Position numbers: made by a program | IMG/VR virus record: IMGVR_UViG_2534681831_000041 | Reading direction: 5' to 3' (one strand) | Length of the DNA: 62,855 bases | Source: a virus | Taxonomy: Duplodnaviria > Heunggongvirae > Uroviricota > Caudoviricetes | Shown: positions 36,001-39,000 of the stretch, piece after piece | Layout of the letters: every line of letters starts with the position of its first letter | Position numbering within the stretch: position 1 is the first letter of the stretch

Positions 36001-39000
36001 CGCCTCAGGTGCAGGCTGTTGTGCTCGACCTGTGGGTTAATCTTCTGGATGTGCCGCAGAAACAGGAGTTTGTTGAGCGTATTCGTGCTGCGCTGGGGAC
36101 GCCAAAATCACCGGATGAAATGACGCCGGAAGAACAGGAAGTAGCGGCACAACAACAGGCACTTCAGCAACAACAGGCAGAACTCCAGATGCGCGAGATG
36201 GCTGGCAGAGTGGCAAAACTGGAAGCTGACGCCGCCAGGGCACATGCAGCTGCACAACGGGATAATGCCAGTGCACAGCGGGAAGTCGCCCTGACACAGG
36301 GGCAGCGTTATGTGGATGCGCTTAACCAGGCACATACGGCAGAAATCATTACCGGCGTACAGAATATGGAACAGGAGCAGGACGTTCTTCAGCAACAGAT
36401 GCTGTATACGTTACAACAGCGGATGAATGAAATGTCGCTCTGAAAACTCTGGCTTCAACTGAACCCCGTCATCGTACGGGGTTTTTTGTTTCCGGAGGTA
36501 AGCGTTCCGGGAGCGGTGCGCTTATTCGCGGGGGCAGCGATAAGCCTTATTTACTCAACCATTCGGATCTGTCCGATAAACAGACCATGCGGAGTTATTT
36601 ATGGATTTTGAATTTACGGGTGAAGAAACCCCGGAACAACTGGAAAAAATGCTGGAAGGACTTGGGGATGTGGATATTGACAGTCACGCACAGGACGTCG
36701 TGACGGAAGATACCACGGAAAAACATGCGGATGAGGAAGCACAGACTCAGACGGGCGATAACAATGTGGCACCGACGCCGGATGCCAGTGTGGAGCAGAC
36801 GCAGGACGTGAAGGAGCCGGAAGCGAAGGGGGTGCTCACCCGCGACGGTAAACACGTCATTCCCTATGAAGTCCTTGAGGCTGAACGTTCCGGTAAGCAA
36901 CGGGCCGAACAGGAAGCCGCACTTCTTCGTGGGCAGATAGCTGAAGAAAAACGCAGGGTGGAACTGCTGACGTCTCAGATCCACCAGGCCGGTATGAAGC
37001 CCACACCGTTACCGGAAAACGAAAAATTTCTGATGAGCAGATTGCCCGTATCAGGGAGATGTATCCGGAAATTGGTGACGCGGTGGCTTCGCTCATCCGT
37101 AAAAATAACTATCTCCAGTCCCGTGTTCAGCAATCAGCACAGCAGGCAGAAGGTAATGGTGGTGAGGATTTATCACCGGTTCTTGATGCGATGAATGCCG
37201 TGCCGGTGCTGAAAACGTGGCAGGAGTCCGATCCAGATCGCTTCTCGGTTGCTGTATCCATCGACGGGAAGCTCCAGAATGACCCCGCATGGAAAGACAA
37301 AACGCTCACTGAACGTTTCGCTGAAGTGGCCCGTCGTACGCAGGTTGCTTTCGGTGAAGTCAGTGAGTCGTCTGCTGACAACAAGGCAGACAAAACGGAT
37401 ATCCGGAAAACGGCGGAAGAGAAAGTGAAGACCGCTGAACAGGAGCAGGCAGTACCTGCTTCCCCGTCAGATTTAGGCACCACGGCTTCCGTCGGAACCG
37501 GTGATAATTTTGAACGGTTACTTGGCGCTTCTCATTCAGAGGCAGAGGCGATTATGCGCGGTATGACGAATGCTGAAATAGACGCGCTTCTGGAGAAGCT
37601 CGGGTAACTTACTGAAGGAGAACTGAAGTAATGACGACTGTAACATCAGCCCAGGCGAATAAGCTGTATCAGGTGGCGCTTTTTACCGCTGCCAACCGCA
37701 ACCGCTCGATGGTCAATATCCTCACTGAACAGCAGGAAGCGCCAAAAGCGGTTTCGCCGGACAAGAAAAGCACGAAGCAGACCAGCGCGGGTGCGCCGGT
37801 TGTCCGTATCACAGACCTTAACAAACAGGCCGGTGATGAAGTGACCTTCAGCATCATGCACAAACTCTCAAAACGTCCGACGATGGGAGATGAGCGTGTT
37901 GAAGGTCGTGGTGAGGATCTCAGCCATGCTGACTTCTCCCTGAAAATCAATCAGGGACGTCACCTGGTGGATGCAGGCGGACGTATGAGTCAGCAGCGCA
38001 CGAAGTTTAACTTGGCATCCTCAGCCAGAACGCTTCTGGGGACGTACTTTAATGACCTGCAGGACCAGTGTGCGATAGTGCATCTTGCTGGAGCTCGTGG
38101 TGATTTTGTTGCTGACGACACTATTCTGCCGACAGCGGAGCACCCTGAATTCAAAAAAATCATGATCAACGATGTACTGCCTCCGACACATGACCGTCAC
38201 TTTTTTGGCGGTGATGCGACAAGCTTTGAGCAGATTGAAGCGGCAGATATTTTTTCTATTGGCCTGGTGGACAATCTCTCCCTGTTCATTGACGAAATGG
38301 CGCATCCGTTACAGCCGGTTCGTCTGTCCGGTGATGAACTTCACGGAGAAGATCCATATTACGTCCTGTACGTCACGCCGCGTCAGTGGAATGACTGGTA
38401 CACCTCGACGTCCGGTAAGGACTGGAACCAGATGATGGTTCGTGCCGTGAACCGTGCAAAAGGTTTTAATCATCCGCTGTTCAAAGGTGAATGTGCGATG
38501 TGGCGCAATATCCTGGTTCGTAAGTATGCGGGTATGCCGATCCGTTTCTATCAGGGGTCAAAGGTTCTGGTATCAGAGAATAACCTGACGGCAACCACGA
38601 AAGAGGTCGCTGCTGCAACCAATATTGACCGCGCCATGTTACTGGGGGCTCAGGCGCTGGCAAATGCTTACGGTCAGAAGGCGGGCGGTCACTTCAACAT
38701 GGTTGAGAAGAAAACGGATATGGATAACCGTACTGAGATAGCAATCAGCTGGATCAACGGTCTGAAAAAAATCCGTTTCCCCGAGAAGAGCGGCAAGATG
38801 CAGGATCACGGCGTGATTGCCGTTGATACAGCAGTGAAGCTCTGATTTTTTCCTTTCCCTATGCCGGGTTTTCGCCCGGCTTTTTCAGGAGTCATTAATT
38901 ATGGCAAAGACTATCCTTGCCCCGTCACTGAGTGAACGGGTCTATACGGGTACGCACGGTAATGAGTCGGTGGCAGAAGGCGTATTTACGGTGAATGCTG

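Follow-up and report, generated by a model that had tools for sequence, protein, structure and literature searches.

When a phage gene that is one open reading frame (ORF) in its relatives is found as two, the break may lie in the DNA, be bridged during expression, or exist only in the sequence record. This question is raised by a gene in the late region of a Stx2a prophage, which we analyzed within a window of 62,855 nucleotides (the whole stretch presented above). Two overlapping ORFs on the plus strand, 36601-37194 (197 aa) and 37059-37607 (182 aa), are read in frames one base apart, and a run of five A's occupies positions 37022-37026 of the same strand in the context CCGGAAAACG-AAAAA-TTTCTG, with TTTCTGATGAGCAG following downstream of the run. 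The earlier note on this DNA had described a single gene split at this run and had asked whether the split and its companions elsewhere in the prophage were assembly errors or signs of decay. Its description of the site holds, as the run and both ORFs are present and one additional A at 37022-37026 fuses the ORFs into a protein of 335 aa that is identical to L0115 of phage 933W and ECs1222 of Sp5. As it stands, the gene (36601-37607, plus strand) comprises 1007 nt compared with 1008 nt in these phages; the upstream ORF encodes native residues 1-143 followed by 54 out-of-frame residues, and the downstream ORF corresponds to native residues 154-335. The sole Shine-Dalgarno-like sequence (GGAG) of the downstream ORF abuts the ATG with zero spacing.

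The split gene is flanked by an ORF for a 714-aa portal protein (34299-36443) and an ORF for a 404-aa major capsid protein of the N4-gp56 family (37631-38845), and the gene order portal, split gene, and major capsid is the same in the window, in 933W, in Sp5, and in the finished genome of E. coli strain 8B described later. The 1.1-kb region is matched by 193 phage records and 423 records of complete E. coli genomes; the best 80 matches listed each cover 1102 bases compared with the 1101 bases of the query, at 99.9% identity. In 933W (L0115) and in Sp5/VT2-Sakai (ECs_1222, ORF61), the locus is one CDS of 1008 nt that contains A6 and encodes a single protein of 335 aa (...PLPENEKISDEQIARIREMYPEIGD...), and the aligned stretch is otherwise identical. 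The window thus has the same nucleotides over 1.1 kb, the same position between portal and capsid genes, and, once the A is restored, the same full-length match to a PHROG as these genes (L0115 matches phrog_479 over residues 1-335 with an E value of 3e-151; phrog_479 is without a function label), and the sole difference is the length of the run. More distant homologs from Salmonella and Yersinia (42-58% identity) are likewise single ORFs of 326-353 aa, in which the segment spanning the junction, AGMxPxPLPE...ISDEQIAxIR, is among the best conserved. A single ORF of approximately 326-353 aa is therefore a trait of the L0115 family that all full-length homologs share and that the window as given, with its two ORFs, lacks, which we attribute to a base-calling error.

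The gene itself is already known as the head-formation gene of short-tailed Stx phages of the 933W/Sp5 type, where experiment has shown it to be essential, and we find no new biology at this locus. The earlier note had called it a scaffolding gene. The scaffolds gp8 of P22 and gp9 of T7 are encoded between the portal and coat genes, as is the split gene. Besides this position, an AlphaFold2 model built from 40 homologs resembles such scaffolds in being mainly α-helical, with one long helix and an N-terminus that is acidic and disordered, at low confidence (pLDDT 65, pTM 0.26). However, no resemblance to a solved scaffold was detected in either sequence or fold: searches of Pfam, NCBIfam, and PDB sequences with the gene product returned nothing significant, only noise, and a Foldseek search of PDB with the low-confidence model (pTM 0.26) returned nothing below an E value of 0.3. 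Sp5 from which ORF61 (ECs1222) is deleted forms no plaques, packages no DNA, and fails to lysogenize new hosts, and head-like particles are not seen (PMC5155283). The defect of the knock-out can be complemented (PMC5155283). With an antibody against ORF61, no labeling of virions or of mutant particles was obtained, so that the authors were unable to say what the protein does (PMC5155283); their candidate for the scaffold was ORF65 (ECs1226), whose loss results in spiral coat structures typical of scaffold loss (PMC5155283). The ORF61 knock-out differs from the ORF65 knock-out in this respect, as it is without any head-like particles. What has been demonstrated, through the Sp5 ortholog, is an essential head-formation protein (PMC5155283). 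The name in the earlier note is therefore not established: head formation in Sp5 needs the gene, but ORF65 has been proposed for the specific role of a scaffold, for which Pfam, NCBIfam, PDB, and fold searches gave no match; given where the gene lies and what its product is composed of, "scaffold-like" would be a reasonable guess.

An A5 run could be a functional arrangement if the two ORFs were joined during expression, whether the slip was made by the ribosome (programmed −1 frameshifting) or by RNA polymerase (transcriptional slippage on the A-run). Relative to the upstream ORF, the downstream one is in frame −1, and tRNA-Lys on the AAA at 37024-37026 could re-pair one base back to yield ...ENEK-ISDEQ...; the A-run at an ORF junction and the −1 downstream ORF also recall the −1 sites of IS3-family transposases, including that of IS1203 in the window, and of dnaX (A AAA AAG). 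Unlike at those sites, however, the zero frame reads AAC GAA AAA TTT and contains no X XXY YYZ heptamer, so that only single-tRNA slippage would be possible, and no stimulatory structure is evident, as the 70 nt downstream fold with −18.8 kcal/mol compared with a shuffle mean of −18.2 kcal/mol (z = −0.20). Nor is a two-ORF layout conserved, because the homologs are single in-frame ORFs that have A6 or other codons, and the intact ones are simply read through; the programmed frameshifting in homologs that the earlier note had envisaged was not seen among them. A run of five A's is generally too short for RNA polymerase to slip appreciably in E. coli, which counts against the transcriptional variant. 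Programmed frameshifting and transcriptional slippage were therefore rejected on the basis of single-ORF homologs, the missing heptamer, and the missing downstream structure, and we give joining in expression almost no weight.

The origin of the window proved informative. Positions 33601-40194 (6,594 bases compared) are base-for-base identical to positions 33601-40194 of AIGG01000052.1 from assembly GCA_000249815.2, in which the 197-aa product is encoded at 36601-37194, exactly as it is here. By this identity, checked over 6.6 kb, the window evidently is bases 1-62855 of AIGG01000052.1, a contig of the E. coli DEC8B draft. DEC8B (GCF_000249815) is an O111:H8 strain from a human patient and carries stx1, stx2, and eae (PMC7693793). 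A finished genome, NZ_CP077473.1, is recorded as E. coli O111:H8 strain 8B, from a human in Idaho, and among 5,426 complete E. coli genomes CP077473 was the sole single-piece 100% match to both of the 25-kb halves tested. Aligned with all 62,855 bases of the window, CP077473.1 shows 0 mismatches and 6 one-base gaps, and it shares the IS1203 insertions and the recT lesion of the window; even in the close relative 95NR1, the set of IS insertions is not the same, and substitutions and a 9-bp indel are seen as well. Based on name, serotype, host, identical IS1203 insertions, and zero substitutions, strain 8B appears to be DEC8B re-sequenced to completion. The drafts of the DEC collection (those of Hazen et al. 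2012) were reportedly made with Roche 454, and we take the DEC8B draft to have been made on a homopolymer-prone platform.

All six indels between the window and 8B are located in A/T runs of 4-7 bases, and five of the six are undercalls in the window. Because A/T runs of at least 4 bases make up 4.9% of the window, the chance that all six indels would fall within them is approximately 1e-8, and the pattern is therefore not due to chance. Five of the indels break genes, and the same five genes are annotated as intact in 8B. The window has A5 where 8B has A6 in int (819-1987, plus strand) at 1858-1862, removing the C-terminal segment ...KMLGHELGGVMAVYNKHD..., in which KMLGHELGGVMAVYNKHD is presumably box II with the catalytic Tyr. 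It has T6 where 8B has T7 in an ead/Ea22-like gene (6632-7038, minus strand) at 6964-6969, and T5 where 8B has T4 in the nanS-p gene for a SASA-family esterase (26197-28135, plus strand) at 26949-26953, the sole overcall of the six. The A5 run at 37022-37026 (plus strand) in the head-formation gene is A6 in 8B, as it is in 933W, Sp5, and O157:H7 F6667, and the intact form of the gene in strain 8B is WP_000345010.1. The fifth site, A4 in the window and A5 in 8B, is intergenic (43130-43133). The sixth, at 52882-52886 in the IS1203 transposase gene (51992-53204, minus strand), is T5 in the window and T6 in 8B as well as in other IS1203 copies; it is the A-run TGG AAA AAA TGA where orfA ends, and it falls inside a feature annotated as "AL1L pseudoknot" in a transposase annotated as "programmed frameshift." The frameshifts in int and nanS-p that the earlier note had listed beside the split gene are thus present in the window. 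Its list is without T6 at 6964-6969 in the ead/Ea22-like gene, A4 at 43130-43133 in the intergenic region, and T5 at 52882-52886 in the IS1203 transposase.

The most probable reading, to which we assign a probability of approximately 0.92, is that A5 would be a homopolymer undercall in the consensus of the early DEC8B draft (AIGG01000052.1), the true sequence being A6 in one intact gene of 1008 nt. The same error process would have produced the five further one-base miscalls in A/T runs, that is, those in int, the ead/Ea22-like gene, nanS-p, the intergenic region, and the IS1203 transposase. Confinement to A/T runs of 4-7 bases, a predominance of undercalls, and the lack of substitutions are features shared with the homopolymer miscalls of draft or long-read consensus sequences from flow-based or nanopore-type platforms. 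A finished sequence that seems to be of the same strain, given that 8B appears to be DEC8B, differs from the draft by homopolymer indels only, and the variants are singletons that break conserved ORFs. The A6 run that the earlier note had suggested looking for in the strain itself was found indirectly, by way of the finished 8B genome.

In principle, polishing that is hybrid or guided by a reference can bring alleles of that reference into a finished genome, and the window could then be right and 8B over-corrected; we have nothing specific that points to this. However, the six 8B states match those of hundreds of genomes and phages that were sequenced independently, among them the Sanger-era sequences of 933W and Sp5, and they restore intact, conserved ORFs. 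Third genomes side with 8B at all six sites, 95NR1 at 1858, 6964, and 52882 and O157:H7 F6667 at 26949, 37022, and 43130. Strain 8B also retains lesions of its own, in recT and in an antirepressor gene, so no blanket correction was made. An erroneous finished genome was rejected on the agreement of third genomes and Sanger-era phage sequences with 8B, and we regard it as scarcely credible.

To determine how often the short run occurs elsewhere, we counted exact matches to an 81-nt query centered on the A5 run. One of 389 complete E. coli records and none of 190 phage records contain it, and exact-pattern scans of IMG/VR found the A5 pattern in 0 contigs and the A6 pattern in 34. Exact matches to the window variants of int (A5) and nanS-p (T5) were found in 0 of 203 complete-genome records and 0 of 733 records, respectively. 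The lone complete genome with A5, that of strain 2018-166, is an error-rich assembly, in which the portal gene, the head-formation gene, the major capsid gene, and the gene two further downstream are all annotated as frameshifted and which has 17 gap columns (15 separate indels) in 6 kb. Two other sources of an A5-type product are similar: CP015887.1 has 5 gaps in 6.6 kb and SRR16955620 has 6 gap columns in 2.5 kb, all of them in homopolymer runs. The site at 37022-37026 thus recurs in other visibly error-rich assemblies, as known homopolymer miscalls do. In SRR096454 and SRR646540, A5 is the only local indel, and the A5 allele overall was found on several distinct allelic backgrounds.

The alternative is that the deletion is real and that the sequenced DEC8B stock had a decayed Stx2a prophage in which the head-formation gene, int, and nanS-p were lost by replication slippage; such a prophage would be unable to excise or build heads, although toxin production and cell lysis would continue. 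Homopolymers are natural slippage hotspots, and other lesions in the prophage do look real, namely the recT lesion, which is common to the window and 8B, and an antirepressor frameshift, which the prophage shares with 8B and F6667. On the other hand, six homopolymer indels accompanied by zero substitutions in 62.8 kb separate the window from a finished genome of the same name, and every one of these indels is a singleton compared with hundreds of genomes. Five gene-breaking indels with zero substitutions are the opposite of the pattern expected from real decay or from a mutator, as a mismatch-repair mutator accumulates not only homopolymer indels but also transitions, of which none were seen. 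At approximately 1 indel per 10 kb, moreover, approximately 500 would be expected genome-wide, which is ordinary for an uncorrected draft from a homopolymer-prone platform but extraordinary for a culture stock. We therefore consider real decay improbable, both in the loss of the genes and in the toxin-producing but headless state that it entails. Of the two explanations that the earlier note had weighed, assembly error is strongly favored for int, nanS-p, and the head-formation gene, whose lesions are private to the draft and absent from 8B and hundreds of genomes, and decay is not. On this evidence, which is that of sequence comparison, the prophage would not be decaying at the genes hit by the miscalls.

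At least one other A5 carrier, ERR2044120, looks clean, however, and does not fit a picture of pure artefact. The same A5 allele is present in two independent assemblies, the NCBI TPA SKESA assembly (DADUJV010000010.1) and the Logan assembly. Over 10 kb, this phage has 253 substitutions relative to 8B, yet A5 is its sole frame-breaking indel and the late genes around it are intact, which speaks for real decay in so far as A5 stands in an otherwise clean late region. If this run is short-read data, the change from A6 to A5 in ERR2044120 is probably a rare genuine loss-of-function allele. It does not rescue the A5 call in DEC8B, because that call is one of six such errors and the finished genome disagrees with it. 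One might go further and propose that the A6 tract in an essential head gene is a slippage hotspot that permits an occasional, perhaps reversible shut-off of virion production while toxin and lysis are kept, in which case one base at the A6 tract might explain the phenotype of some toxin-carrying lysogens that are regarded as "non-inducible." Applied to the DEC8B window, such a hotspot requires a real A5 call, and we consider the proposal a long shot.

The recT lesion has a different history from that of the miscalls. The window has A4 at 11818-11821 in recT (10963-11914, minus strand) compared with A3 in the prophage of O104:H4 2011C-3493, resulting in a frameshift. Because the finished 8B genome carries the same A4, with the gene annotated as frameshifted there, recT falls outside the artefact set, and the frameshift is probably a real lesion. 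The A4 is located exactly where the 95NR1 prophage has an IS1203 flanked by a 3-bp AAC duplication, and it may possibly be the footprint of an IS excision. The grouping of recT with the other frameshifts was consequently rejected, as its lesion is common to 8B and sits at an IS1203 target site. The earlier note had counted four single-base homopolymer frameshifts as one pattern; all four are present, and those in int, nanS-p, and the head-formation gene would be artefacts, whereas that in recT, being found in 8B, is probably genuine. Beside these four, its tally is without two more gene breaks that appear artefactual and one intergenic miscall.

The value of these findings lies mainly in data hygiene, and the biology is reassuring rather than surprising. 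Users of the DEC8B draft (GCA_000249815) would wrongly score its Stx2a prophage as defective in the integrase, in nanS-p, and in an essential head gene, and at approximately 1 homopolymer indel per 10 kb, false pseudogenes in the whole genome would number in the hundreds. On the present evidence, the prophage has an intact morphogenesis module of the 933W/Sp5 type and should be treated as potentially inducible. The artefact has also spread, the truncated 197-aa product having been deposited under several accessions; an identical upstream product is on deposit for both E. coli DEC8B and DEC11C, and PHROGs contains families that are built from halves of the 335-aa protein.

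The A5 frameshift that splits the head-formation gene (36601..37607, plus strand) at window positions 37022-37026 is also present in an unrelated isolate, ERR2044120, and two assemblies made independently from this sequencing run both contain it (L014, the DADUJV010000010.1 assembly, positions 10001-10594; L015, the Logan assembly). The late region of this isolate is quite divergent (253 substitutions in 10 kb) and otherwise intact, with no other frame-breaking indels over that length, and its A5 is probably a genuine defective allele. Further truncated versions of the head-formation protein have been deposited, including one of 197 aa from Logan (P0087) and one of 143 aa (P0132), which are broken at different short runs that correspond to window 37045-37060; in one example, the GGG within ATC AGG GAG ATG is one G short and the product reads ...ARIRRCIRKLV.... 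These different breakpoints show that several homopolymers of the gene undergo miscalling or mutation. The PHROGs families phrog_10452 and phrog_10114 are merely the N- and C-terminal halves of the restored 335-aa protein (residues 1-179 and 162-335, respectively), and the break between them seems to be close to another A5 run (37101-37105), approximately 80 nt downstream of the first. Frequent deposition of split versions of the gene would seem to have seeded these separate families.

Two other lesions are found in the finished genome of 8B as well as in the window. The gene for the N-terminal domain of a phage antirepressor (window about 29868-30450; L003, 8B coordinates, 30870-31452) is annotated as frameshifted both in 8B and in O157:H7 F6667, and this lesion is common to different lineages and older than the errors of the draft. 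In recT (10963-11914, minus strand), sequence comparison revealed A4 at window 11818-11821 vs A3 in the O104:H4 prophage, a +1 frameshift that the window and 8B have in common. In the sister prophage of 95NR1, IS1203 is inserted at exactly this point with a 3-bp AAC target duplication (L006, 95NR1 positions 13455-13500 and 14770-14815), and the +1 frameshift may be the footprint of an IS excision rather than the product of simple slippage.

The contig itself begins within an IS1203 copy (window 1-180) that adjoins a tRNA-Arg gene and the integrase, and a second, complete copy (51950-53259) sits among the late genes. This layout is the same in finished 8B and different in 95NR1 and 95JB1, where ead and recT are interrupted by IS1203 in place of the positions seen in the window. 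The transposase of the complete copy (51992-53204, minus strand) is annotated with a programmed frameshift, and one private miscall of the draft (52882-52886), located within the annotated AL1L pseudoknot, hits the A-run TGG AAA AAA TGA that closes orfA. Because the miscall falls in this run, which is full in the other IS1203 copies compared (8B and 95NR1), the copy looks to have lost its frameshift site in the DEC8B draft.
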